Assembly: GCA_016712505.1 (NCBI GenBank)
Contig: JADJQY010000005.1
Span: 249,258 to 313,257 of the forward strand
From: Candidatus Eiseniibacteriota bacterium
Lineage (GTDB): Bacteria; Eisenbacteria; RBG-16-71-46; CAIMUX01
Direction of reading: 5' to 3'
DNA: 64,000 bases
The notes under the pieces were generated by a model. The model did no database searches. It saw only the letters and a list, made by a program, of their open reading frames with translations, and was not told the DNA's origin. The number at the start of each line of letters is the position of its first letter. Within the stretch, counting starts at the first letter, position 1. Shown piece by piece: positions 26,223 to 63,305 of this stretch. The position numbers and the translations under genes were made by a program.

Positions 26223-26320
26223 TCCCAACGGACGTATCCCTACGGACGTGTCCCTACGGACGTGTCCCAACCGACGTGTGCCAGCAGACGCGTTACAGCA
26301 GACACGTTCCAGCCGGGTGT
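26223..26320. repeat. tandem array A: about 7 x 14 bp (TCCCTACGGACGTG consensus), decaying at the 3' end, in the pnp leader
   Basis: Direct reading: tcccaacggacgta / tccctacggacgtg / tccctacggacgtg / tcccaaccgacgtg / tgccagcagacgcg / ttacagcagacacg / ttccagccgggtgt. Confidence 0.85.
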
Positions 26321-26385
26321 TATCGAGCGGGCTGGTGCGTAGGCGTTCCGGCCTCTTCCTCAAGCGCCCACCCGCCGTCTGGTGC

Positions 26386-26491
26386 CCTGCCGACTGGCAG
26401 CCCTGCCGTCCGGTAACCTGCCGTCCGGTAACCTGCCGTCTGGTAACCTGGCGTCCGGTAACCTAGCGTCCGGCAGCCTGCCAGGTTCCAG
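26386..26491. repeat. tandem array B: about 7 x 15 bp (CCTGCCGTCCGGTAA), inverted relative to array A
   Basis: cctgccgactggcag / cctgccgtccggtaa x2 / cctgccgtctggtaa / cctggcgtccggtaa / cctagcgtccggcag / cctgccaggttccag. The reverse complement TTACCGGACGGCAGG resembles the array A/G core TACCGACGG. Confidence 0.85.
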
Positions 26492-26556
26492 CGGGCGTCC
26501 CTTCACCGCACCATGGCGGCAACCTCCTGCGCCCCTCAAGGAACCTGCGCTTCCGA

Positions 26557-26590
26557 CTGAAAAGCCCCCGATTCGATCGAATTGGGAATC
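26557..26590 (-). terminator. candidate rho-independent terminator downstream of rpsO
   Basis: On the minus strand: CCCAATTCG-AT-CGAATCGGG hairpin (one mismatch), then GG and CTTTTC. A second GC hairpin (CCCCC-gctgt-GGGGG) lies just upstream. Confidence 0.35.
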
Positions 26591-26673
26591 TCAAGCCCCC
26601 ACAGCGGGGGTTGTTGCGGGCCGCCAATCCCAGAAGACTCGGCGGCCGCCGCACCACCCCAAGGGGGCGTCGA

Positions 26674-26943
26674 CTATCGACGCAACCCGAGTTCCTTCAC
26701 CAGACTGCGATAGCTCTCCAGCTTGGTGTTCTTCAGGTACTCGAGCAACTTGCGCCGCCGACCGACCATGCGGAGAAGCCCGCGGCGGGAATGATGATCC
26801 GTCGCGTGCTTTCTAAAGTGTTCGGTGAGGTGCCGGATCTTTTCGGTCAAGAGCGCAATCTGCACTTCCGGCGAGCCGGAATCCAGGTCATGCAGCTTGT
26901 ACTTGCCGATGATCTCCTGTTTCTCTTCCTTGGACAGTGGCAT
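26674..26943 (-). CDS. rpsO: 30S ribosomal protein S15
   Basis: [15 protein letters not shown]...[16 protein letters not shown]. Confidence 0.95.
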
Positions 26944-27228: not shown

Positions 27229-28200
27229 TCAACGGATTCCTTCGATCGGCGGCAGGACGGGATCTCCGATTTTCGGCACCTTGCCCTGGAGTCGGAGGCG
27301 AGCCTCCTCGATGTCCCGGGCCACCGCCTCCTTCAGTGCCGGAAGCCCGTCGAATCGAATTTCCGCTCGAATTCGCGCTTCGAAATAGACCGGCAGAACT
27401 TTCCCCCTCAGATCGCCGCTCCAGTCGATCAAGTGGACTTCCACGGTATCGGCAGCATCATCTGTCAACGTTGGGCGACGTCCGACATTGATCGCCGACG
27501 GCACCACACCCCCCGCGATCTCGGACCAACCGGCCTAGACACCGCGGGCGGGCAGGCAGGTTCCCTCCGGAAAAACGAGATTGGCTGTCGGGACGAGCAG
27601 CTTGCCTCCCTCCCCCCGACCGAACCCCACCCGCCCCTCGAGCAGATAGGTCCGCCCCAGGACGCGGCTCGCCTCCTCCACCGCGCCACGGCGCAGCGCC
27701 TCCCGAACACGGGAGGAAGACCACGCGCACCCCGCATCGAGAACGGGCGGGAAAACCTCCGCCGTGAAATCCCGCTCGCGCCCGAGTTCACGCAGCAGAT
27801 CGATCGTTCCTTCGCGACGGTTCCCGAAGCGAAAATCCGCTCCCACCCAGAGCTCGCGCAGGTCGAGACGCGCCAGGAGCACGTCAAGGAAGGCGCGCGG
27901 CGAGAGTGCGGCCATGGCGGGGGAGAACGGGAGCAGCCAGGCGTGCGTGAAGCCGAGTTCGGCCAGGGCCCGCAGCTTTTGCTCCCGGCTGGCCAATCGG
28001 TGGACCGGAACACCGCGGGCCAGGATCTCGATCGGGTGGGGATGAAAGCTGATCGCCACTGGAGTGGCCTCGAGGGCGGCAGCGCGCATCAACACGGACT
28101 CGAGCAAGGCGCGGTGGCCGCGATGAACGCCGTCGAACACCCCGATGGTGGCAATCGCCGGGCCGGAGATGAACGGTTCGGAGGAACGAGGATCGAGCAC
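27229..28200 (-). pseudogene. ribF: bifunctional riboflavin kinase / FAD synthetase interrupted by an in-frame TAG (27535-27537)
   Basis: Two same-frame ORFs (27535..28200 and 27229..27507). Read through, the sequence is ...PARGV*AGWSEIAGGVVPSAINVGRRPTL..., where * aligns with the conserved Tyr of the riboflavin-kinase PxxGVY motif. Confidence 0.6.
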
Positions 28201-29546: not shown

Positions 29547-29552
29547 CGCTCC

Positions 29553-29981: not shown

Positions 29982-32858
29982 CTACTCGAGTTTGCGCGCC
30001 ACCTCTTCGACGGTGTACGCCTCGATGACGTCACCTTCCTTCATGTCGTCGTAGCCGTCGAGGCCGATGCCGCACTCGAAGCCGGTCTGCACCTCGCGCG
30101 CGTCGTCCTTGACCCGCTTGAGCGAGGCGAACTTGCCGTCCCAGACCACGTCTACCCCACGGTAGACCCGGGCCCGGTCGTTGCGGCTGATCGAGCCGGA
30201 GACCACGAAACAGCCGGCGATCGCCCCCACCTTGGTGATGTGGAACACCTTTCGCACCTCGGCCGAGCCCTTGATCGTCTCGACCTTCTCCGGCGCGAGC
30301 AACCCGGCCATCGCGTCCTTGATGTCCTTCTCCACCTCGTAGATCACGCGATAGAGACGGATGTCGACCTTCTCGGTCATCGAGAGCTGGTGCGCCTTGG
30401 CATCCGCACGGGTGTGGAATCCGATGATGATTCCGCCCGAGGCCTTGGCCAGGAGGACGTCGCCTTCGGAGATCAGGCCCACCCCGGAGTGGATGATCCG
30501 CACCTTCACCTCGCTGGTCGACAGCTTGGTCAAGGTGTCGCGCAGCACTTCCACCGAGCCGGCCACGTCGGCCTTGAGCACGACGTTCAGTTCCTTCAGA
30601 TCGCCTTGCTTGATCCGCTCCTGGATCGACATGAGCGAGGTTGACTGCGTCTGGAGTCGGATCTTGTGCTCCCGCGCGATCTGCGCGCGGTAGACCGCGA
30701 TCTCCCGCGCCTTGGCTTCGTCCTTCATCACCGTGAGGACGTCGCCGGCCTGCGGAACGTCGTTCCAGCCGAGCAATTCCACTGGCGTCGACGGTCCCGC
30801 GACGGTGAGGCGCTGGCCCCGTTCGTCGTTCATGGCCCGCACACGACCCGACTGTCCACCGCAGACATAGGCATCGCCTACCCGGAGGGTGCCGTTCTGT
30901 ACCAGCAACGTCGCCACCACCCCGCGCCCGGAATCGCGCTTCGATTCGATCACGACTCCGCGAGCCGGGCGTTCCGGCTCGGCCTTCAGTTCGAGCAACT
31001 CGGCTTCGAGCAGCAGCCGTTCGAGCAGCGCTTCGACGTTCTGGCCGTGCTTGGCCGAGATCTCGACCGCACCGACCTTGCCGCCCCACTCCTCGATGAG
31101 CACGCCGTTGTCCGCCAGCTCCTTCTTGATCCGCTCCGGGTTGGCATTGGCCAGATCGATCTTGTTGATCGCCACCACGATCGGCACGTTGGCCGCCTTC
31201 GCGTGGTTGATCGCCTCCAGGGTCTGAGGCCGAACCCGGTCGTCCGCCGCGACCACCAGGACCACGATGTCGGTGACCTGGGCACCCCGGGCGCGCATCG
31301 CCGTGAACGCCTCGTGTCCCGGCGTGTCGAGGAACGCGACGTTGCCCTGTGGCAGCCGCACCTGATACGCACCGATGTGCTGGGTGATGCCGCCGGATTC
31401 CGTCTCGATCACCTTGGTCTTCCGCACGTAGTCGAGCAGGCTGGTCTTGCCATGGTCGACATGGCCCATCACGGTGACGATCGGGGCGCGCGGCTTCTTG
31501 TCCCAGACCTCGTCGCTCTCCTCCTCCTGGGCCAGCATCTCCTCGCCGAACTCGGTCTGGAAGTCCGGCTCGAAGCCGAACTCGTCCATGATCGTGGCGA
31601 TCGCATCCTTGTCCAGTCGGTAGTTGATCGTGGCCATGATGCCGAGCTGGAAGCAGGTGGCGATCACCTCGTTCGGCTTCGCCTCCATCATCGAAGCGAG
31701 CTCCGCCACGGTGACGAACTCGTGGACCTTCAGCGTGCGGCTGACCTCCTCGACCCCCACTTCATCCGAACGGCGGCGGCGTCGCGAACCGCGCGAGCGC
31801 CCGGCATCGATGTTCGCCATGGTCCGCCGAACGTTGTCCCGAACCGCGGCCTGGTCAACCGTCCGCTTGCCGCGCTTCTTGTTTGCTCCGCCGCGATTGC
31901 CGAAGAGCGGAGCCCGTGGCGCCCCAGCCGAAGGCGGATTGAGCACCGGCGCGTTACCGCGCTGTGGCGGACCTCCCGGTCGCCCGGGGGGACCGGATTG
32001 CGGGCGGTAGCCAGGACCACCGGGACGACCCTGATCACCGGGACGACCCTGATCGCCGGGCCGACCCTGATCGCCAAGCCGACCCTGGTCCCCCGGTCGC
32101 GGCGGGTCTCCAGGGCGGTACTGGCCGGCCGGAGGCCGACCGCCGGGCGCACCGCCGCGATTGGGCGGACCACCTGGCCCGGGTCGTCCGCCACCCTGGG
32201 GCGAACCGGTCGCGCGGGCAGGGTACCCCCCGGTCGTGGCCGGGCCGCGATTCCCACCGGACGCGCCCTGCGGCGGGCCTCCCGCCGGGGAAGACGAGCG
32301 CGGCTGCGTCGGGCGCTGGGTGTAGTCGGGATACGGACCGCCGTGCGGCTGGTATCCCGCGGTCGGCGCATTCGGATTCGTCGGTCGCGGCGGAGCGACC
32401 GGGCCGGTCGTTCCGCTGCCCCCCTGGGGAGGGGTCGAAGACGAGCTCGCCCCCGCGTCGCCCACACCACCGGCGCCGCCGCTGCCTGGCCCCACGCCGG
32501 CGGAGCCGGATCCGGCTGAACCCGCGCCAATCGCTCCCGGTGCGGACACTCCGGCGGTCGGAGCCACGGTGCCCGGGGCGGAGGGAAACGAGGCCGGCGC
32601 CTGCCCCGCGGGGGGCGTCACCTGGCGAGCCTCCTCCACCTTGCGATTGATCTCGTGGTGAAGGGCTGCCTTCTTCTCCGTCTCGCTCTTGGTCTTCGCC
32701 CTCTCTTCGCTGATCTGGGCGCGGATCTTGGTGACGAGGTCGTCGTCGATCGCGCTCATGTGGCTTTTCACATCGTCACCGAGTTTGGTGATGATGCTGA
32801 CCAGAGCATCGCTGGAGATCTTCAGTTCACGAGCGAGCTGGAAGACGCGTGTCTTCAC
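29982..32858 (-). CDS. infB: translation initiation factor IF-2
   Basis: GTP-binding domain [16 protein letters not shown]...DTPGHEAF...NKID. Long Gly/Pro-rich N-terminal region encoded by 18-bp DNA repeats around 32021-32092. Confidence 0.95.
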
Positions 32859-34474
32859 GCATTCGCCTCACTTTCGTCGTTCTCGGCCGGTGTTGCCTGC
32901 GCGCGTCCCGTATCCGGGTCGGCTCCGCCGGCGTCTTCACGGGCGCCGGAGTCGCTCATCGCGGGAGTGTCGAGGGAATTCCCTTCCGCCTGCACGCCCC
33001 TGTCGTCCGAATCGGTGCTGTCGTCCGAATCGGTGCTGTCGTCCGAATCGGTCCTGTCGCCCGAATCAGTCCTGTCACCCGAATCAGTCCTGTCCGTTTC
33101 GTCGCTTTCGGTTTCCGAGTCGTTCCGGGCCGCGGGATCGTCAGCCGTAGCTTCCTCGCCGACCTCGCCGACCTCGATTTCGGCCCCATCCACATCGGCA
33201 TCCGCCAGGTCGCCGGAAGCGCCCCCGGCGCGCCGTTCGAGAATCTCCCCGCCGAGCGTGAGCAGACGGGTGGCGGTCTTCTCGCCGATCCCCGGGATCG
33301 CCATCAGTTCCTCGACGGACGTGCGCATCACGTCCTGGAGCGTTTCCTTCCCCGCCTTGATCAGCTTTTCCACGGTGCGCGCGCCCAGATCCTTCTCGAG
33401 CTCCTCGAGCTCGATCTCGGCCGCCTCGCCCGAAGCCGCCTGCATCTGCGACTGGCTCTTCAGGTCGATCGCGTAGCCGGTGAGCTTGCTCGCCAGGCGT
33501 GCGTTCTGTCCGCGGGTACCGATCGCGACCGAGAGGCCCTCGTCCGCCACGACCACGGTGGCGCGACGCTCCAGCTCGTTCGGAATGACGTCGAGTACAC
33601 GCGCGGGTGACAAGGCGCGAGAGAGAAACAGCTTCGGATCCGGGCTCCAGGGCACGATGTCGATCCGCTCTCCCCCGAGTTCGCGGACGATGGCCTGCAC
33701 GCGCGCCCCCTTCATTCCGACGCAGGCGCCGACCGGATCGACGCGGTCGTCATGGGAGACGACCGAGATCTTGGTGCGGGATCCGGGCTCGCGGGCGATG
33801 TCCTTGATCTCGACCACGCGCTCGAAGATCTCCGGAACCTCGTTCTCGAAGAGTCGACGCACGAAGTCGGGGTGCGTCCGGGAGAGGATGAGCTGTGGCC
33901 CCTTCTGGTTCTTGTCGACGTCGAGCAACAGAGCGCGGACCGGCTCACCGATCTTGAACCGGTCGCGGAAGATCACCTCCCGGGGCGGAATCATCCCCTC
34001 GGTCTTCCCCAGCTTTACGATCACGCTCCCTCGATCCACCTGGGAGACCGCGCCGCTCAAGATCTGCCCCTTGCGCTCGATGAACTCCTGGAAGACGTTC
34101 TCCCGTTCCGCCTCACGAACCCGCTGGACCAGCACCTGCTTTGCGGTCTGGATGGCGTTACGCCCAAACTCGGCCACCGGCACGTCCACCGGTACCGTCG
34201 TGCCGAGGCGGACGCCGGGATGGGACTTCACCGCCTCCTCGTAGTCGATCTCTCCGGCCAGATCGATCGCGACCTGCACCACCTTCTTGTGCACGCGGAC
34301 ACGGATCTCGCCCGAAATCTCATCGAAGGCGACCTCCACGTCTGCCGCGGTGGCATAGCGCTTCTTTGCCGCGCTGAGCAGCCCGACGGTGAGCGTCTCC
34401 ACCAAGAGGCGCCGATCGACGCTCTTCTCGCGGGAGATCTGCTTCAGTGCTTCGAGAATTTCCTCAGTAGCCAT
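32855..34474 (-). CDS. nusA: transcription termination/antitermination factor NusA
   Basis: MATEEILEALKQISREKSVDRRLL, S1 domain, two KH domains and an acidic C-terminal tail encoded by an 18-bp tandem repeat (33002-33091, (DSTDSD)n). Confidence 0.9.
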   Translation of the reverse strand: MATEEILEALKQISREKSVDRRLLVETLTVGLLSAAKKRYATAADVEVAFDEISGEIRVRVHKKVVQVAIDLAGEIDYEEAVKSHPGVRLGTTVPVDVPVAEFGRNAIQTAKQVLVQRVREAERENVFQEFIERKGQILSGAVSQVDRGSVIVKLGKTEGMIPPREVIFRDRFKIGEPVRALLLDVDKNQKGPQLILSRTHPDFVRRLFENEVPEIFERVVEIKDIAREPGSRTKISVVSHDDRVDPVGACVGMKGARVQAIVRELGGERIDIVPWSPDPKLFLSRALSPARVLDVIPNELERRATVVVADEGLSVAIGTRGQNARLASKLTGYAIDLKSQSQMQAASGEAAEIELEELEKDLGARTVEKLIKAGKETLQDVMRTSVEELMAIPGIGEKTATRLLTLGGEILERRAGGASGDLADADVDGAEIEVGEVGEEATADDPAARNDSETESDETDRTDSGDRTDSGDRTDSDDSTDSDDSTDSDDRGVQAEGNSLDTPAMSDSGAREDAGGADPDTGRAQATPAENDESEANA

Positions 34475-34626: not shown

Positions 34627-34712
34627 CCCAAAGAACCCCAGCCCAGCCCTGGCCGAAGAACCCCTGGCCGAAGAACCCCTGGCCGAAGAACCCCTGCCCG
34701 AAGAACCCCTGC
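34627..34712. repeat. tandem array C: 4-5 x 15 bp (GCCGAAGAACCCCTG) in the rimP-nusA spacer
   Basis: gccgaagaacccctg x3, then cccgaagaacccctg, then a degenerate unit. A partial copy precedes the array. Confidence 0.85.
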
Positions 34713-34723: not shown

Positions 34724-35383
34724 TCACGAGGTCGGCTGCGGTTCATCCGCCTCGGTCCTCGCCAGGTCGGGCCCCGACGCGACCCCTCGACGCCTCCACG
34801 GGTCCATGTGGACATGGGCCGACTCGATGTCGCTCAGCCGCACGAACCGCCGCGCGGTGCTCGGAGCCGCCAAATCGGAACCGCGATCCCCGGTCAGGCC
34901 CGCGGTCGGTACCGTGACACCCCGCTTCGACTTCTTCTGCTTTCCGCGGGGACTGCCCCCGCGCCGACCGGCATCCGGCGCCATCGGCTCGAGCCAGAAG
35001 CCGTCCGTTTCCCAGAGCCCGATCGCCCCCTCCAGGTGGCGGATACCGCCGCCCGGATCGCGCCAGTCCAGCTCTACCCGTTCTCCGACGAAGCGGCGAA
35101 AGTGCCGTTCCTCGCTGATCGGGCGGTTCATCCCCGGCGACGAGACCTCGAGGCTGTAGCTATTGCGCAGACTTGGATTCGCATCCAGAACGTTGGCCAG
35201 CGTGCGACTGAACTTCGCGCAAGCCTCGACCGGCAGCCCGTTGTCGTGGTCGAGGGTGACCCGGATGTTCTGAATCCGGCTGCCGCGTGCCACGGAGCAC
35301 TGCACCAGTTCGTCGCCGCCCTCATCGAGCAAGGGCCGGATCAATTCCTCGAGTTCCTCGCGACGCACCGTTCCGCTCGCCAA
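34724..35383 (-). CDS. rimP: ribosome maturation factor RimP (with an Arg/Gly-rich C-terminal tail)
   Basis: LEELIRPLLDEGGDELVQCSV...SLEVSSPGMNRPI. Confidence 0.8.
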   Translation of the reverse strand: MASGTVRREELEELIRPLLDEGGDELVQCSVARGSRIQNIRVTLDHDNGLPVEACAKFSRTLANVLDANPSLRNSYSLEVSSPGMNRPISEERHFRRFVGERVELDWRDPGGGIRHLEGAIGLWETDGFWLEPMAPDAGRRGGSPRGKQKKSKRGVTVPTAGLTGDRGSDLAAPSTARRFVRLSDIESAHVHMDPWRRRGVASGPDLARTEADEPQPTS

Positions 35384-35674: not shown

Positions 35675-36592
35675 CTAGGGGGCGGCGAGTTCCCCCCCGT
35701 AGATCAGGTCGAGCACGACCGTCCCGACCCGCTCGAGGGTAGTCGAACTGAGCCGGTCCGGAGTGTCCTTGAGGGTGTGCCAGTTTGGATCACCCCAGCC
35801 GATGATGAGCGCGGAGGGCACCCCGCGGCGGAGCCAGGGCAGGTGATCGTCGGTAATGGCGTAGCCGACTGCCGGGTTGAACTCCGCGAAGCCGCGGCGG
35901 GCCGCCAGATCGAAGATCAGATCGGAGAGATCCGGGAAATACCGCTGCGAGTAGAGCTCGCGACCGAATTGCGCCCCCGGGGCGCCGATCATGTCCAGTA
36001 CCAGCACCCAATCGGGGAGACGACCGACCCATTCGGAGGCCAGGCGCTGGCTCCCCAGGCAGAACTCCTCGGGCTTGTCGTCCCGCCCCAGATCCTCCGC
36101 GTCGAAAAGCACCAGATCGACCCCGATCGGCGGGGGGTTGTCGCGCAGAACTCGCGCCAGGGTGAGGAGCAGCGCCGTACTCGACGCCCCGTCGTTCGCC
36201 CCCAGGACCGCCTTCGCGCGCGCCTGGGGATTCGGATCCTGGTCCGCCCAGGGGCGGGAGTCCCAGTGCGAACCGAGGAGCAGCCGCGGCCGGGCCTCGG
36301 GGCGAATCGAGATGATCAGATTGGTGCAGGCGAGCTCCCGACCATCAGCGGGCGAGATCACCTTGAAGGGGTGGGCGCGATAGGCGACGCCAAGGGAATC
36401 GAGGTGAGAACGAAAGGCCGAGAGGCAACGGGCATGCGCCGGCGTGCCCGGCACCCGGGGACCGAAGGCGCACTGTCGCCGCACCCACTTCATGGCGCTC
36501 TCCCCGGAGAGAGCCGGAGCCGCGGCCTCGACCGGGTCGGCCGACAGGAGCAGCGCCCCGAGCGCCAGCAATCGCCCGACGCCCCCCCGCAT
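35675..36592 (-). CDS. M28 family zinc peptidase (secreted aminopeptidase / glutaminyl-cyclase-like)
   Basis: Signal peptide, then LLGSHWDSRPWADQDP, GANDGASSTALLLTLA and LFDAEDLG metal-ligand motifs. Confidence 0.7.
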   Translation of the reverse strand: MRGGVGRLLALGALLLSADPVEAAAPALSGESAMKWVRRQCAFGPRVPGTPAHARCLSAFRSHLDSLGVAYRAHPFKVISPADGRELACTNLIISIRPEARPRLLLGSHWDSRPWADQDPNPQARAKAVLGANDGASSTALLLTLARVLRDNPPPIGVDLVLFDAEDLGRDDKPEEFCLGSQRLASEWVGRLPDWVLVLDMIGAPGAQFGRELYSQRYFPDLSDLIFDLAARRGFAEFNPAVGYAITDDHLPWLRRGVPSALIIGWGDPNWHTLKDTPDRLSSTTLERVGTVVLDLIYGGELAAP

Positions 36593-39500
36593 CAGAAGGT
36601 GAAGGCGGCCGAGACGGAGATGCTGACCAGGCGTGTCGTGTTCCCCTCGTTCTTGTTGTCGGTGTTCTGCCCCACGCTCAGCGATGCCTTCCCGTTGATG
36701 TTGTCGGTGAACTGATAGTTGGCGTCGGTGGTGACCTTCAGACTGGAACGATCATCCCCGATCACGTCCTGCCCCGCCCCGAAGCGCGAGGTGGTCGATT
36801 TGTTCTGCGACCAGTCGATCGCCCCTGAGAGGTCGAGACGGGTTTGCACCACCTTTTTCTGGTTCGTGACCGGCACCACCACCGTCTTGGTCAAGCGGAT
36901 CGTCTTCTTGACCGTGAGCAGAACCTTGCGCGAGATCGACTCGTTCAGGTTCCCCGGTGGCGGATTGTAGCTCTGGGTGCGGGTGACCCGCGAGTCGCTG
37001 CTCAAGGAGGCGGTCATCTCGTTGTTCAGCGTCAGGTTCAGGTTCAGCAGGGGCGAAAACGCGGTGCTCCTCTGCTCCGTGTCCCGGGTACGCCCCTGGG
37101 AAGCGGTCGTCTGGAGCTCTCGCGAGAAGTTGGTCGTCGCCTGGATGCTCTTTACCCGCGACTCCAGGCCGAGGACCTTGACCAGCGCCTTTGGCGCCGT
37201 GCCCCAGTTCACGTTGAGATCGGGCCACTTCGTGGTGACCCGCGTCGTCGGCTGCTGCGCGTTCTGCCGTTGGTTCGATTCGGTCCGGTTTGCGCTCGTC
37301 CCCACGCTCACATTCTGCGGCATCCGGAGCGAGGTGGTCAGGGTGAAGGTCTTCCCTTCGCTCTCGGTCGACTGGGCCAGCCCTACCGGGCGAGTGTCTC
37401 CGCCCGGGTTGTCACTCAGCCCGAGCTGATAGAGCATCGAGGGAGTGCCGCGCTGGCTGCTGCGACTATTGTCGTGGGTGAGCGAGTACTGCAGCTGCAT
37501 CGGTTCGAGTTTGAACCCGCGCGGGCCGGAGCCGGCCGACGAGTTTCCCGACTTCTCTCCCTTCCCCCCCCGACCCAGTTTCGCCAGCTCGCCCAACGCG
37601 AGGCGAGCGGAGAAGCTGGTCGAGTTCCCCGAGCGGAACGAGTTGGTCCGCTCCTGGCGGTCCTGCTGCAGGTTGGTGTACTGCAGGAAGTCGATCCCCG
37701 AGCGCCCGCTCCAGGTGACCTTGGGCGCCACCGAGGTCTTCAAGATCGGGATGTCGTAGTTGGTGCTCAGATCCTGTTGTCGCGCGGTCTCACGACCGAG
37801 GTTCAGCCCGAGCAGGCGTGGGGCCCCTTCTCGGAGCTGCAGATCCCGGTTCGAGCTGATCCGGTAGTTCAAGAACTGCAACGGTCGCATCCCCGCTCCC
37901 AGGTTGAGCGCGGCGCTATTGCGGTTGGAGGTCGGGGCGAGGCGGAAGGGCGCGGCGAGGTCGCTACGGACGTAGCGACGGCTCCGGTTCCGCTGCCCAT
38001 TCAGGGTGGCGCTGACCGAGTTGGGCAGCAACTGCGCCCGCCACCCCTTGCCAAGGTTGAATGCGGCAAGGTTGTCCAGCGCCATTGCCCAGGAGACGCC
38101 CCCGGTGGCATTGGTCGTGGTGTCGCGCTGGGTTGGGGTGAGCGAGGTCGCCTTTCGATGCGAGCCGTTCAGCCTGAACGGGGCCAGGCCGTAGCGCACC
38201 CATGGGTTCTCCGATGACTCCTTCTCGATGCTGACCTCGAGCCGTCGCTCGTTGGTCTCGCTGATGTCGCGATCGGTGGCTCGATCGAGCACCAGGTCGC
38301 TGTTGGTCTGGAACTTCGGGACGCGACGGTCCCGCGCGGCCGACCAGCGGACCGGCAGGCGGATCCCGAGCGGCGAGAGGAATCGATCGACATTGACGGT
38401 GCTGGCCAGGTTCACCGCCGTGGTGGTGGTCCCGGAGCCGCGCTCCTTTCCGATCGAGAGGAAGTCGGCGTTGGTCCGGGTGAGGTTGCCGCTGAAGCTG
38501 GCCACGTCCGAGAGATTGGTCTGGACGCTCATGCGCGTGGCGTACCCCCGGTCCTTCTTGACCTGGGTGAGGCGCAGCTCGTTGATCCAGACGTTGCCCC
38601 GCCCGAGAGTCGACTGGCCCCGGTTCGCGACGAAGAAAGCGATCCGCTGGATGCTGGTCAGGCTCGGATTCCCCTTTCGCGAGATGACCGCACCGTTGGG
38701 CAGGCTCCGACTGGCGATCTTGGTCACGGAGTCCGGCACGTCGAGCTGCAGCTGGGACATCTCTGCGAAGTCCATCCGAACCAGGTACCAGTCGCTCAAG
38801 ATCGGAATCCGGTACTCGTAGTAGTTGGTGGTGTTGCTGTTGGCATCGCGACAGAGCCGGATGGTCGCCTGGAGATTCGCGTCCCCCAGTTCCGACCGTT
38901 TGCGCAGGTAGAACTCCATGTTCTCGTAGAGCGTGTAGTCCTGCCGGGTGGGATAGGTGCGGTAGATCGACGCCTTGTGCGCCGGGGCGAAGTTCGACAG
39001 CTCGAGGGTGATCGACTGCTCGCGCTCGGTCACGTTGTTCTGTTTCCCCGGCTTGAACGGTGGATCGTAGACCGCGGCATCGTCCTTGTTGTTCAGCACG
39101 CTGACGAAGAAGTCCTCCCCCGGGCCGATCTGCTCCGGCGGGAGCGGCCGGTCGGCCAGGTTGGCCAGCGGCCCCTCGTACCAGCGGTTGCCGATGATCT
39201 CCAGCCCGCCGATCTGGAGCAGGGTCGAGTCGGCCAAGCTGTCGACCCAGACCCGGGCGTGGAGGATCTTCTCCCAGCTCGGCTCGATTCCGGGTCGGCT
39301 TTCGATCCGCACCAGGGAGTCACTGTCGAGCGGGATGCGGACCCGGCGCCAGCCGTTGTCCGATCGGATGGCGAAGTTGAGATCGTTCCGTCCTTCGTAG
39401 TCGCGGAAGACGTCGGTTTCCCAGAGCGTGGAGTCGCCGAGATCGATCGACACGGTGAAGTAGCTGCTCAGGGTGGAAAGTGAGCTGTCGTCGTTCAGGT

Positions 39501-39840
39501 CCTCGCTGTCCATCTCCTGATTGCCTTCGGTGCCGTTGACCTGAGCGTACTTGCGCGGACTGGTCTCGCTCACGTCGTCATCGAACTTGTAGTCGTCGCG
39601 CGGATCGTCGCCCGATCGACCTGATTGGATCCGGTCGAGGCCCACGTCCTCGTCTCCCTGGGTTCCCTGGTCGAGGCGGCCGTCGTTGTTCTGATCCTCG
39701 GTGTCGAGCTTGCCGTTCGGAGTGACGATCGTTCGCTCGCTCGGTGGTCGGCGGAGATCATTGGGATCACCGCGGTACCAGATGGCGTCCTCGTTCACCG
39801 AGCCAAGGTCGATGTGGAGGCGGCCGCGCCGCTTCGCCAC
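36592..39840 (-). CDS. SprA-like giant cell-surface / outer-membrane protein, C-terminal fragment (frame 0)
   Basis: 1082-aa ORF rich in Asn/Thr/Ser beta-strand-like repeats, ending in ...SISVSAAFTF (beta-barrel C-terminal Phe). Contiguous with two upstream frames. Confidence 0.5.
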   Translation of the reverse strand: MAKRRGRLHIDLGSVNEDAIWYRGDPNDLRRPPSERTIVTPNGKLDTEDQNNDGRLDQGTQGDEDVGLDRIQSGRSGDDPRDDYKFDDDVSETSPRKYAQVNGTEGNQEMDSEDLNDDSSLSTLSSYFTVSIDLGDSTLWETDVFRDYEGRNDLNFAIRSDNGWRRVRIPLDSDSLVRIESRPGIEPSWEKILHARVWVDSLADSTLLQIGGLEIIGNRWYEGPLANLADRPLPPEQIGPGEDFFVSVLNNKDDAAVYDPPFKPGKQNNVTEREQSITLELSNFAPAHKASIYRTYPTRQDYTLYENMEFYLRKRSELGDANLQATIRLCRDANSNTTNYYEYRIPILSDWYLVRMDFAEMSQLQLDVPDSVTKIASRSLPNGAVISRKGNPSLTSIQRIAFFVANRGQSTLGRGNVWINELRLTQVKKDRGYATRMSVQTNLSDVASFSGNLTRTNADFLSIGKERGSGTTTTAVNLASTVNVDRFLSPLGIRLPVRWSAARDRRVPKFQTNSDLVLDRATDRDISETNERRLEVSIEKESSENPWVRYGLAPFRLNGSHRKATSLTPTQRDTTTNATGGVSWAMALDNLAAFNLGKGWRAQLLPNSVSATLNGQRNRSRRYVRSDLAAPFRLAPTSNRNSAALNLGAGMRPLQFLNYRISSNRDLQLREGAPRLLGLNLGRETARQQDLSTNYDIPILKTSVAPKVTWSGRSGIDFLQYTNLQQDRQERTNSFRSGNSTSFSARLALGELAKLGRGGKGEKSGNSSAGSGPRGFKLEPMQLQYSLTHDNSRSSQRGTPSMLYQLGLSDNPGGDTRPVGLAQSTESEGKTFTLTTSLRMPQNVSVGTSANRTESNQRQNAQQPTTRVTTKWPDLNVNWGTAPKALVKVLGLESRVKSIQATTNFSRELQTTASQGRTRDTEQRSTAFSPLLNLNLTLNNEMTASLSSDSRVTRTQSYNPPPGNLNESISRKVLLTVKKTIRLTKTVVVPVTNQKKVVQTRLDLSGAIDWSQNKSTTSRFGAGQDVIGDDRSSLKVTTDANYQFTDNINGKASLSVGQNTDNKNEGNTTRLVSISVSAAFTF

Positions 39841-54852: not shown

Positions 54853-56148
54853 GTGCCGAAGCTTCGCGGGATCGCGAATGGCCTCGTTTGGGTCCTGGTC
54901 ACACTCGCCACCCAAAGCGTCGAATCGCGAGCGACGATCCCCCCGGATGTGCCTCTGGTCAACCGACCCGGGGTCGGCACGCGAGCGCTCGGCATGGGCG
55001 GGGCATCGGTCGGAGTTTCCGAGGACTATCACGCCCTGGCGATCAATCCGGCGGGGCTGGCCCAGCTCCGCCGGGTCGAGTTCGGCCTGGAGTTCAAGCG
55101 CAAGTCGATCACCTCGGATGCGACCTACCTGGGCGAAACCCATTCCGTGCCGCTGGACAAGACGCGCATCCAGTCGATCGGCTTCGCCTATCCCTTCCCA
55201 ACCTACCGAGGCGCGCTGGTCGTCGGGATGTCGTATCAGCGGGTGGCCGACCTCGATCAGGACTATTACCGCGCCGGCCGAGGCGGGGAGATCCAGAGCG
55301 AGGTGGAGACGATCTTCGAAGAGGGTTCGGTGGGCGCCTATCAGGCGGGATTCGCGGTGGCCGCGAGTCCCAAATTGAATCTGGGTGCCACGGCGACGTT
55401 CTACTCCGGGGGCTCGGATCGCGAGCGATCGTTCACCTATCGGTCCACGAACGGCATCGACCGCGAGCGGACCAACACCACGCAGGAAATGGACATCCAC
55501 GCGATCAGCGGATCCCTGGGCGCCCTGGTGCAACTGCGGCCCGATCTGCGGCTGGGGCTGAGCCTCCATCTCCCCGAGAGCTTCACCCTCGAGGGGTCGG
55601 GAGACGATGACATCGTGCGGGTCGGGACCGAGCCGCCCGATACCCTGGACATCCTGGAGCCCTACACGTTCTCCGACGAACTCACGCTGCCGGCGCGATT
55701 CTCCGCGGGTCTGGCCTGGACCAGGAACGGTTGGTTGGCCAGCGCCGATGCGGCGATCGCCGACTGGAAACAGATCGACTACTACGGCCCGCTCCGCACC
55801 GAGGAGCGTGAGTACGTCTACCGCACCGAGGTCGACCTTCGGCTCGGCGTGGAATACACGTTCCCGAACACGCCGCTGCGGCTGCGCGCCGGATACGCCT
55901 CGCAGCCGGTGGCCTACCGCCCGATCGCCACCGACGTGTTCCGCGGGGAGTTCGCCTTCGCCGACTTCGAACAGGACCGACGCACCTGGGCGTTCGGCGG
56001 GAGCGTGCTGCTGGAGGAGTCGATGATGCTGGAGGCCGCCTATGTGACCGGCGGCTACGAGCGCCGCGGACGGAGCCCTCGGGGCGTGGAGACGATCGAG
56101 AAGCTCGATCAGAACGACCTGTTGGTCGGGGTCACGTTTCGGCTCTGA
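54853..56148 (+). CDS. FadL/OMPP1-like outer-membrane beta-barrel protein (PorV-like)
   Basis: Signal peptide, then RALGMGGASVGVSEDYHALAINPAGLA (N-terminal hatch NPA motif of FadL-family barrels). Alternating beta-strand pattern to the C-terminus. Confidence 0.5.
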   Translation: MPKLRGIANGLVWVLVTLATQSVESRATIPPDVPLVNRPGVGTRALGMGGASVGVSEDYHALAINPAGLAQLRRVEFGLEFKRKSITSDATYLGETHSVPLDKTRIQSIGFAYPFPTYRGALVVGMSYQRVADLDQDYYRAGRGGEIQSEVETIFEEGSVGAYQAGFAVAASPKLNLGATATFYSGGSDRERSFTYRSTNGIDRERTNTTQEMDIHAISGSLGALVQLRPDLRLGLSLHLPESFTLEGSGDDDIVRVGTEPPDTLDILEPYTFSDELTLPARFSAGLAWTRNGWLASADAAIADWKQIDYYGPLRTEEREYVYRTEVDLRLGVEYTFPNTPLRLRAGYASQPVAYRPIATDVFRGEFAFADFEQDRRTWAFGGSVLLEESMMLEAAYVTGGYERRGRSPRGVETIEKLDQNDLLVGVTFRL

Positions 56149-56163
56149 GTCGGGTCAACTCTG

Positions 56164-56270
56164 GGGCAGGGCCAGTCCTGAGGTCGGGCCAGTCCTGAGG
56201 TCGGGCCAGTCCTGAGGTCGGGCCAGTTCTGAGGTCGAGTCAGCTCTGCGGTTGGGTCAGATCTGCGGCC
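56164..56270. repeat. tandem array E: about 6 x 17 bp (GGGCCAGTCCTGAGGTC) between the convergent OMP and rnc genes
   Basis: gggccagtcctgaggtc x3 / gggccagttctgaggtc / gagtcagctctgcggtt / gggtcagatctgcggcc. Confidence 0.85.
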
Positions 56271-56292
56271 GCATCCCGCGGTGCGCGGCGCC

Positions 56293-57126
56293 TCAGGCCG
56301 GCTCTTCGCCTGGTCCGAACAGCGTCCCGTCACGGTCGACCTCGGCGATGCGGACCAGGGCGTTGGCAGCAGCGTTCTGCTCCGCCTCCTTCTTGTTGTA
56401 GCCCGAACCGCTCCCGAGCATCCGCCCCCGCACCGTGACATCGACGGTGAAGAGTTTCTTGTGATCGGGACCGTTCTCGGTCACCACCCGATACCGAGGG
56501 TGGGTCCGATAGCGCGCCTGCACCAGTTCCTGGAGTTCGCTCTTGTGGTTGGCCCGCCGCGGGTCGGCCAGAATGTCGTCCGCCCCGAAGAGCAGTTGGC
56601 GATGTACGAACTCCCGCGCCGCCTCCAGCCCCTGATCGAGATAGAGTGCACCGATCACCGCCTCGAAGGCATCGGCCAGGATGTTCTCGCGCTGATCCCC
56701 ACCGGAATCCCGCTCGGCGTCGCTCAGCAAGACATAGTCGCCGAGGTGAAGCTCCAGGGCTCGCTTGGCCAGGACGTCGCGGCAGACCAGCTGCCCCTTC
56801 TTCTTGGTCAGGTCCCCTTCCCGATCGTTGGGGTAGCGGTGATAGAGGTACTGGACCACGATCAGTTCGAGAACCGCATCCCCGAGGAACTCCATCCGCT
56901 CATTGGAGAAGCGCGAGTCGAGGCTGTTCCCGCCGAGGAATGAACGGTGGGTGAGGGCCTGCCTGAGCAGCGCATCGTCCCGGAACTGGAGACCCCAGGC
57001 GGTCTGAAACGCAGCGAGGCTCGCTGGGGCACCCTCGGGGCGCGCGCCGAGCGGAGCCCGAGGCGGAGGCACGGGAGTTGTCGGCCGGCCGAGCCACGAC
57101 CGGATGATTTCGATCAGGCGTTTCAC
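56293..57126 (-). CDS. rnc: ribonuclease III
   Basis: LLRQALTHRSF...NERMEFLGDAVLELIV (RNase III signature) and a C-terminal dsRBD. Confidence 0.9.
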   Translation of the reverse strand: MKRLIEIIRSWLGRPTTPVPPPRAPLGARPEGAPASLAAFQTAWGLQFRDDALLRQALTHRSFLGGNSLDSRFSNERMEFLGDAVLELIVVQYLYHRYPNDREGDLTKKKGQLVCRDVLAKRALELHLGDYVLLSDAERDSGGDQRENILADAFEAVIGALYLDQGLEAAREFVHRQLLFGADDILADPRRANHKSELQELVQARYRTHPRYRVVTENGPDHKKLFTVDVTVRGRMLGSGSGYNKKEAEQNAAANALVRIAEVDRDGTLFGPGEEPA

Positions 57127-58626: not shown

Positions 58627-58869
58627 CTACTTCGCCGACACGTTGTCTTTCAGATAGTTCAGCGCGTCACCGACCTTGGCCATCTTCTCCGCGGCCTCGT
58701 CGGGGATCTCGATCTCGAAGGCCTCTTCCAGGGCCATGACCAGCTCGACCGTGTCGAGGGAGTCAGCCCCCAAGTCGTCCACGAACGAGGCTTCGGGCAC
58801 CACCTTCTCCGGCGCCACGCCCAGCTGCTCGACGATGATGTCCTTCACCTTCTGCTCGTAGTTCTCCAT
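58627..58869 (-). CDS. acpP: acyl carrier protein
   Basis: [18 protein letters not shown] (phosphopantetheine Ser motif). Confidence 0.95.
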
Positions 58870-59082: not shown

Positions 59083-59195
59083 TGTTCGATCGGGGGCCCG
59101 TTCAATCGGGGGCCCGTTCAATCGGGGGCCCGTTCGATCGGGGGCCCGTTCGATCGGGGGCCTGTTCGATCCGGGCCCTATTCGATCAGGGCTCC
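59083..59195. repeat. tandem array F: about 7 x 16 bp (GTTCGATCGGGGGCCC) in the fabG-acpP spacer
   Basis: gttcgatcgggggccc / gttcaatcgggggccc x2 / gttcgatcgggggccc x2 / gttcgatccgggccct / attcgatcagggctcct. Each unit contains CGATCG and GGGCCC palindromes. Confidence 0.85.
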
Positions 59196-59992: not shown

Positions 59993-60960
59993 CGTGCCGA
60001 GCCCTCCGTGGAGAGACCTGTGGTGGAGAGGTAGACCTCCAGTTGCTCCGCCGTGCCCAGGGGAGTGACCTTTGCCTCCTTGTCGACGCCGCGCACCAGC
60101 CCGGCGAGCACCTTTCCCGGGCCGATCTCGTAGAACTCGGTGATTCCGTCGGCCAGCATCGAGCGGACCGACTCCTCCCAACGCACGGTGCTGAGAAGCT
60201 GACGCTCCAGGGAATCGCGGATGGCCGGGGCGAAGTCAGCCCCGTCGGGAGCGACCGGCCGGGCGCTCTGGTTCGTCACCACCGGACAGCGTGGCGCCTG
60301 CATCGGAGTCTCGGCGAGCATCGCCCGGAGCCCGGTGGCCGCGCTCTCCATCAACGGGGAGTGAAACGCGCCGCTCACTTCGAGGCGGATGACCCGCTTC
60401 GCCCCGCCCGATTTCAGAATCTCCATCGCCGCCTCGACCGCCGCCACCTCTCCGGAGATCACCACCTGGCCGGGAGAGTTGAAGTTCGCCGCGCGAACGG
60501 TGCCGGACACACCGGACAGCAGCTCCGCGACCCGTGCCGCCTCGAGACCGAGCGCGGCGGCCATCGTGCCGGGGCGCTCCAGCCCCGCCTGGTACATCAG
60601 TTCTCCGCGTCGCCGCACCAGGCGCAGTCCGGCAGCGAAGTCGAACGCCCCGGCCGCGACATAGGCGCTGTACTCACCCAGACTGTGACCGGCCGCGCGT
60701 GCTGACGGCGCGGCGCTCCAGCCCAGTGCGCGCCAGGCCGCGATACTGTGCGTGAAGATGGCGGGCTGGGTATTGCGGGTCTGCTTCAGCTCCTCCTCCG
60801 GGCCCTCGAAGCACAGCCGCGCCAGATCGAAGCCCAGCACCGCATTCGCCTCGTCGAACACTGCGCGGGCCGCGGGAAATTTCTCGTAGAGATCCTTCCC
60901 CATCCCGACGAACTGCGAGCCCTGACCGGGAAAGAGATATCCGATGCTCACCGCATGCAC
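59989..60960 (-). CDS. fabD: malonyl-CoA:ACP transacylase
   Basis: LFPGQGSQFVGMG and GHSLGEYSA. GTG start at 60960. Confidence 0.85.
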   Translation of the reverse strand: MHAVSIGYLFPGQGSQFVGMGKDLYEKFPAARAVFDEANAVLGFDLARLCFEGPEEELKQTRNTQPAIFTHSIAAWRALGWSAAPSARAAGHSLGEYSAYVAAGAFDFAAGLRLVRRRGELMYQAGLERPGTMAAALGLEAARVAELLSGVSGTVRAANFNSPGQVVISGEVAAVEAAMEILKSGGAKRVIRLEVSGAFHSPLMESAATGLRAMLAETPMQAPRCPVVTNQSARPVAPDGADFAPAIRDSLERQLLSTVRWEESVRSMLADGITEFYEIGPGKVLAGLVRGVDKEAKVTPLGTAEQLEVYLSTTGLSTEGSAR

Positions 60961-61036
60961 TCCCTGTTCATGACACCGCGCGAAACCGGCTCGGGCCCCT
61001 TGGCGCGTGGGCCGACTCTGGAACGTGACGGACCGA

Positions 61037-62044
61037 TCACCAACGGACGAGCGAAGCACCCCAGGTGAGTCCCGCTCCGAAGGCCACCATCAGGACCAGG
61101 TCTCCCTCGTGCAGGCGTCCCTCGCGCCGCGCTTCGTCGAGGGCCAGGGGCACAGAGGCGGCAGAGGTGTTGCCGTACTTCTGGATGTTGAGATAGACCC
61201 GCTCGGGGGGAAGCTCGAGACGCTGCGCGGTGGCATCGATGATGCGGGTGTTCGCCTGGTGGGGAACGAGCAGCGAGACATCGGCCGGCGTGACCCCGGC
61301 GCGATCGAGGACGCGTCGACAGGCCTCCTCCATCCCCCGCACTCCGAGCTTGAACACCTCATTCCCCTTCATGTGGAAGTGGTGCTGTTGCTGGTCGATC
61401 GCCTCGTGGGTGATCGGGTGACGGGAGCCGCCCGCCGGCAGTTCAATCAGCTCCGCCGAGGTGCCGTCGGCACCGAGGTAGGTGGCCAGGATCTCCCCCC
61501 GCCCGTTGTGGGGCCCGATGATCGCGGCCCCCGCCGCGTCGCCGAAGAGGATGCAAACGCCCCGATCCTGCCAGTTCATGAACTTGCTCAGCATTTCGAC
61601 GCCGATCACCAGCACATGGTTGGCCAGTCCCGCACCGATCAGACCCCGCGCTACCTCCGTCCCGTAGAGGAACCCGGAGCAGGCGGCGGCGAGGTCCATG
61701 CAGTAGGCGCGCGGCGCACCGATCGCAGCCTGGACCAGGCAGGCGGTCGAGGGGAACTGATAGTCGGCAGTCACCGTGCAGACCACGATGGTGTCGAGTT
61801 GATCCGCGGTGATGCCGCTCGACTCCAGGGCCCTCCGCGCGGCGGCGGTGGCAAGATCGGAAGCCGCCGTCTTGTCGTCGGCGATGCGCCGCTCGCGGAT
61901 CCCCGTCCGGGCGACGATCCAGTCGTCCGACGTGTCGACCAAGGCTTCGAGGTCGTGGTTGGTGAGTACGCGATCGGGAACGGCCGAGCCGGTGCCGAGG
62001 ATCGAAACCGACCTAACCTGTGGCTTCTTGTCGCTGGAGCTCAC
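61037..62044 (-). CDS. fabH: beta-ketoacyl-ACP synthase III
   Basis: ILGTGSAVP, AACSGF (active-site Cys), HQAN and GNTSAAS. Confidence 0.85.
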   Translation of the reverse strand: MSSSDKKPQVRSVSILGTGSAVPDRVLTNHDLEALVDTSDDWIVARTGIRERRIADDKTAASDLATAAARRALESSGITADQLDTIVVCTVTADYQFPSTACLVQAAIGAPRAYCMDLAAACSGFLYGTEVARGLIGAGLANHVLVIGVEMLSKFMNWQDRGVCILFGDAAGAAIIGPHNGRGEILATYLGADGTSAELIELPAGGSRHPITHEAIDQQQHHFHMKGNEVFKLGVRGMEEACRRVLDRAGVTPADVSLLVPHQANTRIIDATAQRLELPPERVYLNIQKYGNTSAASVPLALDEARREGRLHEGDLVLMVAFGAGLTWGASLVRW

Positions 62045-63047
62045 GTGCGAGTTCCTCTCCGATTTTCTCCGCCACGCCCTGCCGGGCGGCGGTGCCACCG
62101 ACGCGAATGGCGTTCATGATCGCCTTCGCGGTGGAGCGTCCGTGCGAGATCACGACCACGCCGTCGACTCCGAGCAAGGGAGCCCCACCATACTCCTCGT
62201 AGTTCAACTTGTTCTTCAGGCCGCTGAACACCGGGCGAAGCAGGCCGGCGCCGATCTTGTACTTGATGTGGCTTTCGATTTCGCGGCGCACCGTCTGGAC
62301 CGCCATGTTCACCACGCTCTCGGCGAACTTCAGGATCACATTGCCGGTGAAACCGTCGCAGACCACCACGTCGGCATGCCCGGTCAGGATGTCCTTCCCT
62401 TCCACGTTGCCGATGAAGTTCATCTGTCCACGCCCCTCTTCAAGGAGCTTGTGCGCCTGCTGCGTCAGGTCGGAGCCTTTGCAACTCTCCTCCCCGATGT
62501 TGAGCAGCCCCACCTTGGGATTCTCGACCCCGTAAACCTGCTGAGCGTACACCTTCCCCATGACGGCAAACTGGAACAGGTGCATCGGCTTGCTGTCGGA
62601 GTTGGCTCCGACGTCGAGGAGTAGACAGTGGCCGGTCGGGGTGGGAACGATGGTTGCGATGGCGGGGCGCTGCACGCCGGCGAGGCGTCCGAGGCCGAGC
62701 AGACTCGAGGTGACGACCGCCCCGGTGTTGCCCGCGGAAACCAAGGCGTGGACCTGCCGCGCTTTGAGCATCCGAGTGGCGACCACGATCGAGGCATCCG
62801 GCTTCTTGCGGTAGGCCGTCGCGGCCGCCTCCGCCATCCCGATCGTCTCCGAACTGTGGACCACCTCGATCCCGAGGCGGGTCTGGTCCGCCAGCGACAG
62901 GTGACGGCGGATTGCCGGTTCATCCCCGATCAGGACGACCTGCAGCTCCGACCCGAAGGTCTCGGCGGCAAGGATGCTTCCCTCGACGATCGACTGCGGG
63001 GCGTGGTCCCCACCCATGGCATCGACGGCCACCCGTGGCTTGGCCAT
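62013..63047 (-). CDS. plsX: phosphate acyltransferase PlsX
   Basis: RVAVDAMGGDHAP...VSAGNTGA. Confidence 0.9.
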   Translation of the reverse strand: MAKPRVAVDAMGGDHAPQSIVEGSILAAETFGSELQVVLIGDEPAIRRHLSLADQTRLGIEVVHSSETIGMAEAAATAYRKKPDASIVVATRMLKARQVHALVSAGNTGAVVTSSLLGLGRLAGVQRPAIATIVPTPTGHCLLLDVGANSDSKPMHLFQFAVMGKVYAQQVYGVENPKVGLLNIGEESCKGSDLTQQAHKLLEEGRGQMNFIGNVEGKDILTGHADVVVCDGFTGNVILKFAESVVNMAVQTVRREIESHIKYKIGAGLLRPVFSGLKNKLNYEEYGGAPLLGVDGVVVISHGRSTAKAIMNAIRVGGTAARQGVAEKIGEELARELQRQEATG

Positions 63048-63230
63048 CCGGCTCACGTCTGGCACCGGACGGCACGCAGCGACCGGTCAGCGACCGGGCC
63101 GGGGGGCTCAGAAAGGATCCGCATCGTGTGGATTCGCGCCTCCGCGAAAGGGACTCCGGGCGGTCGACTCGTCCGGGGTCTCGCCATGGGTTCGCCTGCC
63201 GGAGAGACCCGGACCATCGGGGACGGGGTC

Positions 63231-63305
63231 CCTACGGACGGTGTCCCTACCGACGGTTTCCCTACCGACGGTTTCAGTGCCGACGGGGTCACTGAAACCG
63301 AGGAC
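63231..63305. repeat. tandem array G: about 5 x 15 bp (TCCCTACGGACGGTG), same family as array A, in the rpmF-plsX spacer
   Basis: tccctacggacggtg / tccctaccgacggtt x2 / tcagtgccgacgggg / tcactgaaaccgagg. Confidence 0.85.

Follow-up and report, generated by a model that had tools for sequence, protein, structure and literature searches.

Short tandem arrays of 14–17-bp units recur in noncoding spacers beside conserved housekeeping genes in a 64,000-nt stretch of an uncultured Candidatus Eisenbacteria genome (GenBank assembly GCA_016712505.1, contig JADJQY010000005.1; the whole stretch is called the window below). This raises the question of whether such arrays constitute a dispersed repeat family tied to the operons in which they lie, or are ordinary minisatellites that have grown where the genome tolerates them. 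A first-pass annotation of the same DNA had listed seven arrays (A–G) and had read them as a dispersed family. All seven were recovered at their places when the full window was searched with Tandem Repeats Finder (TRF) and the units were also read directly in the sequence, and an eighth noncoding array (H) and two in-frame 18-bp coding arrays, all absent from that list, were found in the same search. These arrays are likely to be young, lineage-specific noncoding minisatellites, i.e., variable-number tandem repeat (VNTR) loci, of this species; they look like ordinary slippage-driven VNTRs rather than a new regulatory system, and most of them probably have no sequence-specific function.

The TRF scores of the arrays in the window are 82–160, whereas dinucleotide-preserving shuffles of the window (n = 60) gave a top score of 67 and a mean of 0.13 rows with a score of at least 60 and a period of at least 10. 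Density was measured, with identical TRF settings across loci, as the number of arrays with a period of 10–30 and at least three copies per 10 kb, and was found to be 1.41 in the window, 0.35 in 15 other Eisenbacteria loci (the window thus being ~4x higher) and 0.12 in 30 high-GC loci from other phyla (~12x; Poisson P about 1e-7). Both the shuffles and the density comparison bear out the earlier statement that the arrays are not random low complexity. The same arrays recur in independent assemblies built from different runs (NCBI, JGI, ENA and Logan), in which A, E and G are sequence-identical, and they are therefore real sequence rather than inventions of an assembler.

Within each array, the units abut head to tail without spacers, at periods of 14–17 bp, and all copies are direct repeats, so that the arrays differ from CRISPR arrays, which consist of 23–50 bp repeats with unique spacers of similar length. 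TRF gives 3.8–7.5 copies, a wider range than the 5–7 originally counted. The description of perfect central copies flanked by degenerate ones fits arrays A–F, in which identical central units and decayed edge units were read directly, but not array G, in which no two units are alike. Uniform centres with decaying edges are expected from slippage or unequal exchange, as are unit-sized insertions and deletions (indels) between near-identical genomes. Such differences were seen when the window was compared with 20 kb of one related assembly at 99.7% identity (L001) and with another at 98.5% (L007): array B has one 15-bp unit fewer in L001 and two fewer in L007, and array C lacks 25 bp in L001, the deletion lying between GGGGTTCTT direct repeats. 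Substitutions amount to ~0.2% among the assemblies that differ in B and C copy number. Array A has the same copy number in L001 and L007, array E in L091, and array G is identical in three assemblies; copy number among close genomes thus varies at B and C, with A, E and G invariant in 2–3 assemblies. In addition, short-read contigs repeatedly terminate inside arrays A and F. For example, the window is 99.7–99.8% identical to two contigs of the metagenome-assembled genome (MAG) GCA_020851285.1, both of which end inside array F, and contigs of a relative with ~85% identical DNA end inside its own array A. The earlier view of the repeats as actively slipping is supported by these differences.

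On a longer timescale, the arrays come and go at orthologous sites. The array-bearing spacers of the window had been called short; they are in fact 144–661 bp and 2–9x longer than in sister species. The rpsO-pnp spacer is 661 bp vs. 109–343 bp in other Eisenbacteria, the fabG-acpP spacer 373 bp vs. 55 bp (L218) and 88 bp (L217), the spacer between rnc and the outer-membrane protein (OMP) gene 144 bp vs. 73 bp (L217) and 16 bp (L218), and the rpmF-plsX spacer 282 bp vs. 123–142 bp in sister species, in which array G is missing. Array E is not present in the sister species L217 and L218, array F is not present in L092, L217, L218 or L224 (the last of the same species as L092, with a 269-bp fabG-acpP spacer), and array G is not present in the sister species, L224 included. 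L224 is the closest sister (PlsX 98% identical, DNA ~85%), and there the ~160-bp window insertion of which array G forms a part has no counterpart. G may have grown from an in-situ seed seen in the sister species, an idea for which the alignment is ambiguous. Conversely, L224 carries an array of its own (positions 1499–1555, 16 bp x3.6, CGTCCGGAAGATTAGG) in the yceD-rpmF spacer, 22 nt 5′ of the rpmF start, a site at which the window has an 81-bp spacer and no array. Only array A is common to the window and the ~85% sister, with a different unit tail (TGGGACACGTGATC there vs. GGGACACGTCCGTA here), and array B is represented in the ~85% relative by ~2 degenerate units only. More distant Eisenbacteria hold occasional arrays with 12–24 bp units. 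Hence, E, F and G are absent from orthologous sites and a new array is present in L224, i.e., the arrays follow a birth-and-death pattern in which few last until they are shared between sister species. With head-to-tail units in the ~10–100 bp range beyond chance, copy number that varies among close genomes and rapid birth and death, the arrays have the defining features of bacterial VNTR or minisatellite loci.

The placement of the arrays was assessed with a gene map based on Pfam matches and on gene calls on matching contigs, which showed the names first given to the flanking genes to be correct (Table 1). Between 16.6 and 64 kb, noncoding DNA makes up ~4.7 kb, or ~10%, according to the spacer tally from gene calls, and all eight arrays with 14–17 or 22 bp units lie inside this tenth. 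Only two arrays lie within genes (infB and nusA), both with 18-bp units and both in frame; they resemble a coding counterpart of the noncoding repeat-prone style, and the infB array contains single-nucleotide polymorphisms in L001. Over the same interval, 7 of the 14 spacers of at least 130 bp hold an array, whether the flanking genes are co-oriented, divergent or convergent. Each of the seven listed arrays had been assigned to the inside of an operon; five lie between co-oriented genes, but D and E occupy a divergent and a convergent gap and thus lie outside operons. On its left side the window adjoins 10 kb of the same genome (L223) in which a weak degenerate 14-bp x2.9 array directly follows an apparent tRNA 3′ end, judged to be one by eye because of a T-arm and a CCA end. 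A second weak array (14 bp x2.5) sits there in the 560-bp spacer on the upstream side of a PEP-CTERM-domain gene near polysaccharide genes, whereas the 9 kb on the right side of the window (L221) contain no arrays. The supposed preference for conserved housekeeping operons does not survive these divergent, convergent, tRNA-adjacent and in-gene positions: it arises because the window consists mainly of such operons, and is a matter of the content of the window, not a property of the arrays.

Table 1. Arrays and genes in the window, with two further arrays from the adjoining locus L223 (numbered within that locus)
Feature	Position	Strand	Unit and copies	Placement or remark	Basis
Array A	26216-26313	minus	14-bp unit GGGACACGTCCGTA on the transcribed strand; about 5-7 copies (~7 units)	661-bp rpsO-pnp spacer; ~200 nt 5′ of pnp start	TRF and direct reading
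Array B	26370-26482	minus	15-bp unit x7.5, CCGGACGGCAGGTTA on the minus strand	rpsO-pnp spacer; 191 nt past rpsO stop	TRF
Array C	34647-34711	minus	15-bp unit x4.3, GTTCTTCGGCCAGGG on the minus strand	rimP-nusA spacer; begins 12 nt past rimP stop, terminates 172 nt before nusA start	TRF
Array D	43286-43342	none	15-bp unit x3.8, CTCTCCCGGTCCGGG, palindromic core	445-bp divergent spacer between sprA (minus) and lptF (plus); promoter region	TRF
Array E	56144-56265	none	17-bp unit x7.2	occupies 144-bp gap between convergent OMP gene (plus, stop 56148) and rnc (minus, stop 56293)	TRF
Array F	59084-59191	minus	16-bp unit x6.8, GGGCCCCCGATCGAAC on the minus strand	begins 51 nt past fabG stop, terminates 214 nt before acpP start	TRF
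Array G	63222-63290	minus	15-bp unit x4.6, GGGACACCGTCCGTA on the minus strand (array A unit + one C)	begins 39 nt past rpmF stop, terminates 174 nt before plsX start	TRF
Array H	23847-23896	minus	22-bp unit x2.3	pnp 3′ untranslated region; 19 nt past pnp stop (23916), 5′ of strong terminator-like hairpin 23808-23780	TRF; terminator scan
Coding array in infB	32018-32087	minus	18 bp x3.9, in frame	GDQGRP hexapeptides (x4), IF2 N-terminal region	TRF
Coding array in nusA	32999-33094	minus	18 bp x5.3, in frame	TDSGDR/TDSDDS hexapeptides (x5), acidic NusA C-terminal tail	TRF
L223 arrays	within 14260-14370 and 20559-20593			beyond any housekeeping operon
pnp	23916-26012	minus
rpsO	26674-26943	minus
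infB	29982-32858	minus
nusA	32855-34474	minus
rimP	34724-35368	minus
sprA	end 36592, start ~43149	minus		start inferred from 2185-aa MAG product
lptF	start 43595	plus		N-terminus MILQRYIV
Toluene_X-type OMP	54853-56148	plus
rnc	56293-57072	minus
acpP	58627-58869	minus
fabG	stop 59243	minus
plsX	62013-63047	minus
rpmF	63330-63509	minus

The relatedness of the units was examined by aligning circular units pairwise on both strands and comparing the scores with those of shuffled units (28 comparisons). Arrays A, B and G had been said to have a TACC(G)GACGG core in common, with a related sequence in D. This relation stands for A and G, which are clearly related with a score of 22 vs. a null maximum of 14 and are one indel apart, the fourth unit of G being the array A unit plus one C; the same pair matches by blastn over 28 bp at 93% (E = 5e-4). 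However, the scores of A-B (p = 0.47), B-G (p = 0.37) and B-D (p = 0.08) do not exceed chance, and by the same measure none of C, D, E and F is related to any other unit. The similarity of B and H has p = 0.0025 before correction for the 28 comparisons and is suggestive of a relation at the level of the unit sequences. H, in the 3′ untranslated region (UTR) of pnp, and B, in its 5′ leader, flank pnp and have the core CCTGCC(C)GTC(C/A)GG in common in the same orientation.

Beyond the units themselves, all-against-all blastn of 13 spacers returned the A-G unit match alone, with no common flanks, and an origin from a MITE (miniature inverted-repeat transposable element) or from shared flanking DNA was rejected on this dissimilarity. 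The 6-mer CGTCCG, the counterpart of the TACC(G)GACGG core, appeared as a common core at P = 0.007 with A and G taken as separate arrays, but at P = 0.20 with A-G counted once, so that no 6-mer is common beyond chance. The A/G core was also considered as a dispersed single-copy operator and rejected: it was found only inside arrays, it is no more frequent in the window than expected from shuffles, and the motif is absent as single copies elsewhere in the window and in related loci. A CAGGTT(C) motif across B, H and the two L223 arrays looked significant on TRF consensus units only and was dropped; the actual L223 units mostly do not contain it, and its enrichment in the window is only ~2x, on either strand. 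Finally, a metagenome pattern scan for tandem A/G-type cores (GGGACACN{0,1}GTSN{3,5}GGGACAC) was too permissive to be informative; among the matches listed, most were single, chance or pattern-selected occurrences on unrelated contigs. The suggestion of a dispersed family is thus mostly unsupported: A-G is the sole real inter-locus relation, it is unexplained, and there is no general family.

The first-pass annotation had also predicted structured RNA between the cistrons, for which RNA was folded on the transcribed strand and compared with shuffles. The prediction is clearly borne out for array D (z = −3.5 and −2.2 on its two strands) and array F (z = −4.2) and marginally for array G (z = −2.3), but not for arrays A, B, C, E and H, which fold no better than shuffles (z = −0.1 to −1.0). 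An RNase III-type stem formed by A and B in the pnp leader was considered and rejected, as the minimum free energy fold pairs each array with itself (overall z −2.1) and there is no long A:B inverted repeat. Rfam 15 gave 0 matches at gathering score in the whole window, and promoter and terminator consensus scans yielded nothing beyond the pnp terminator 3′ of H and, across the end of C, a weak terminator-like site. Judged from the unit sequences, Rho-utilisation sites were set aside since on the mRNA strand the units do not combine high C with low G, and so were CsrA-type GGA arrays and G-quadruplex tracts, GGA and GGG being about as frequent as 66% GC gives. In the same rpsO-pnp leader, a ~45-nt element (GGGCGCAGGAGGTTGCCGCCATGGTGCGGTGAAGGGACGCCC, about 26494–26538, minus strand) lies just 5′ of array B in the transcript and is, among noncoding stretches of the window, the one best conserved in the ~85% relative; it may represent either a structured leader RNA or a very small open reading frame with an AGGAGG ribosome-binding site (RBS). 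Two hairpins follow rpsO 5′ of this element, one of which is a perfect ATTCGATCGAAT palindrome followed by GGGGGCTTTTCAG.

The data show the arrays to be real, enriched, confined to tolerant DNA, variable in copy number, subject to turnover between species and mostly built of unrelated units. These observations can be accommodated by the following course of events, in which slippage is the inferred mechanism and the neutrality of the arrays is likewise inferred. A short sequence would be duplicated in tandem locally, and the resulting array would expand or contract by slipped-strand mispairing or unequal exchange. Units of 14–17 bp would frameshift genes, and insertions close to a start codon would harm the promoter, the 5′ UTR or the RBS, so that arrays would survive only in tolerant DNA, i.e., mostly just past the upstream stop, in convergent or divergent gaps, and as in-frame 18-bp repeats in disordered tails. 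Selection against frameshifts and against damage to promoters, 5′ UTRs or RBSs accounts for the positions near upstream stops, for the convergent gap and for the in-frame 18-bp repeats. The longer spacers (2–9x) and the repetitive stretches in polycistronic mRNAs would be side effects of this process. Two arrays in other Eisenbacteria lie over stop codons, namely a 14-bp array that duplicates the rpsO stop in L011 (825–871), the unit of which includes the last rpsO codons and TGA, and a 16-bp array over the stop codon of the upstream gene in L217 (482–532); these show arrays arising right at gene 3′ ends.

Several observations weigh against this account. The unit range is narrow (14–17 bp) and the density is ~4x that of other Eisenbacteria loci, which suggests a lineage-specific cause. 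The analysis covers ~83 kb of the genome, in which the arrays are clumped, with no array of at least three copies in the first 1–23 kb of the window or in the 9 kb to its right. The copy-number differences were seen between assemblies, not reads, and part of them could be due to assembler collapse. The position and the GGGACACGT core of array A are kept in the relative with ~85% identical DNA, and A and G, which lie 37 kb apart with no shared flanks, have nearly the same unit, which pure local slippage does not predict. The ~4x and 12x density, the clustering at 14–17 bp and the A-G match are left unexplained by slippage.

An assembly or sequencing artefact, in which the arrays were created or mis-sized by the assembler, would be one alternative, and it draws on probable errors elsewhere in the window as well as on the breaking of short-read contigs within arrays. 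In ribF (minus strand), the window has an in-frame TAG at 27535–27537 where the 99.7%-identical MAG contig has TAT and an intact 323-aa gene, and a pilT-like T2SSE ATPase gene (minus strand) has an in-frame TAG at 48582–48584 but is intact (405 aa) in the MAG; both codons are either assembly consensus errors or real recent pseudogenes. The sprA gene (minus strand, 36592–43567) spans three frames (36592–40017, 39795–42680 and 42374–43567), implying two frameshifts, whereas SprA in the MAG is one 2185-aa product, and the window differs from L001 by 1-bp and 2-bp indels at 28362 and 23748. The frame changes and small indels would fit an assembly of the long-read type, one that spans array F yet still carries small indel errors. 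As the window looks error-prone or pseudogene-rich, the exact copy numbers call for some caution. However, the recurrence of the same arrays in independent assemblies, with A, E and G identical, largely refutes an artefactual origin, which is accordingly highly improbable. A second alternative is that the arrays are functional cis-elements, similar to repetitive extragenic palindromic (REP) sequences and bacterial interspersed mosaic elements (BIME) or acting as a copy-number dial, which would modulate termination, mRNA 3′-end stability or processing; the highly expressed rpsO, rpmF, rimP and fabG would thereby be uncoupled from the next cistron, with copy number tuning the effect. Arrays C, F, G and H begin 12–51 nt past a stop codon, E overlaps one and H lies just 5′ of the pnp terminator, as such elements might, but this stop-proximal placement is also expected from selection against damage to the downstream promoter or RBS, and a divergent promoter region and the DNA following a tRNA harbour arrays as well. 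Stable repeated hairpins in D and F, the common unit of A and G, both beside ribosomal protein genes, and the retention of the array A core in the ~85% relative would fit a function, whereas five of the eight arrays fold no better than shuffles, the units differ between loci, and E, F and G are missing in sister species with the same operons. On balance, such a cis-regulatory role is unlikely.

The remaining alternative, somewhat less likely again, is a true repeat family in which a dispersed element, or a factor acting in trans, seeded or spread the arrays, in the manner of REP sequences and their REP-associated tyrosine transposases (RAYT) or of MITE-borne minisatellites. A nicking enzyme, a recombination protein or a binding protein would recognise the motif GTAGGGACAC(C)GTCC of A and G, perhaps along with the B/H core CCTGCC(C)GTC; otherwise, the motif would be copied between loci by ectopic conversion. 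In its favour are the near-identity of the A and G units, the uncorrected B-H similarity and the fact that the A/G unit starts with GTAG followed by a GGAC..GTCC dyad, a loose resemblance to REP sequences read from the sequence. However, such a family would not readily account for the lack of common flanks or terminal inverted repeats, for a motif that is not seen singly in the rest of the window or in related loci, for the lack of any relation of C, D, E and F to A/G or to one another, for the lack of a common k-mer once A-G is counted once, or for the metagenome scan, in which the matches listed were mostly chance or unrelated arrays. More improbable still is a combination of function and spread, in which the arrays are not neutral and a lineage-specific DNA- or RNA-binding protein or nicking enzyme recognises cores like GTAGGGACAC(C)GTCC and drives or exploits their amplification, so that copy number would act as a heritable, quickly reversible dial of the coupling of pnp, plsX, nusA and acpP to the upstream gene; if true, a free-living bacterium would thereby tune its core operons in a manner akin to phase variation.

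Slippage-driven VNTR loci thus remain the preferred reading, and they have close parallels elsewhere. VNTR or minisatellite loci are used for multilocus VNTR analysis (MLVA) typing in Burkholderia, Xanthomonas, Yersinia and Mycobacterium. The Eisenbacteria arrays are like bacterial VNTRs in their head-to-tail units of at least 10 bp, mostly intergenic or in-frame when coding, with a uniform centre and degenerate edges, and in that copy number differs among close strains, arrays are rapidly gained and lost between species, and assemblies break there; they differ in the unusually high density in the window (about 1.4 per 10 kb) and the narrow range of 14–17 bp units. Contingency-locus repeats of Neisseria and Haemophilus have 1–8 bp units in promoters or open reading frames, where they have been demonstrated to switch surface or virulence genes on and off. 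They too are slippage-prone repeats whose copy number can alter expression, but the Eisenbacteria units are 14–17 bp and lie beside housekeeping genes. In the literature library searched, no paper combined Eisenbacteria with tandem repeats.

Phase variation through tandem repeats has been described for Mycobacterium tuberculosis (PMC12817950). Mycobacterial interspersed repetitive units (MIRU), as summarised in PMC3184786, have ~40–100 bp units of one sequence family at about 40–50 loci (Supply et al. 1997); they are likewise tandem repeats of variable copy number between co-oriented operon genes of a high-GC genome, but the units here are 14–17 bp (22 bp in H) and locus-specific apart from A-G, in contrast to one dispersed family. 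The same source describes REP/BIME as short GC-rich sequences, some with dyads, located after stops and between cistrons, where REP can stabilise the upstream mRNA (Higgins et al. 1982, Stern et al. 1984/1988). REPs form one genome-wide consensus family, whose members usually alternate in orientation and have a link to RAYT transposases. The position after stop codons and between cistrons and some dyad symmetry are similar; however, the Eisenbacteria arrays are direct tandem repeats, locus-specific, in five of eight cases no better folded than shuffles and not conserved in sisters, and no common consensus was found across the ~83 kb. In Porphyromonas gingivalis, a minisatellite is carried in a MITE (PMC4596501), which resembles the present case as an intergenic array in a bacterium of the Fibrobacteres–Chlorobi–Bacteroidetes (FCB) group but is described there as mobile, with terminal inverted repeats and common flanks, none of which are shared among the 13 Eisenbacteria spacers compared by blastn.

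What is noteworthy is the density of arrays in core operons and the clean record of their turnover, not a new mechanism. If copy number affected polarity or mRNA stability, this would be an unusual hypervariable control of housekeeping genes, although nothing found requires such control. In practical terms, the arrays break the short-read contigs of these MAGs and flag sites of unreliable operon annotation and UTR prediction, and they could act as MLVA-like strain-typing markers in metagenomes. For the biology of this lineage, they offer a concrete, checkable picture of how a bacterial genome that is otherwise compact gains noncoding DNA: in a single species-level lineage of an uncultured phylum, core-operon spacers have been inflated 2–9x by arrays that arise, slip and decay on a timescale similar to that of strain divergence.

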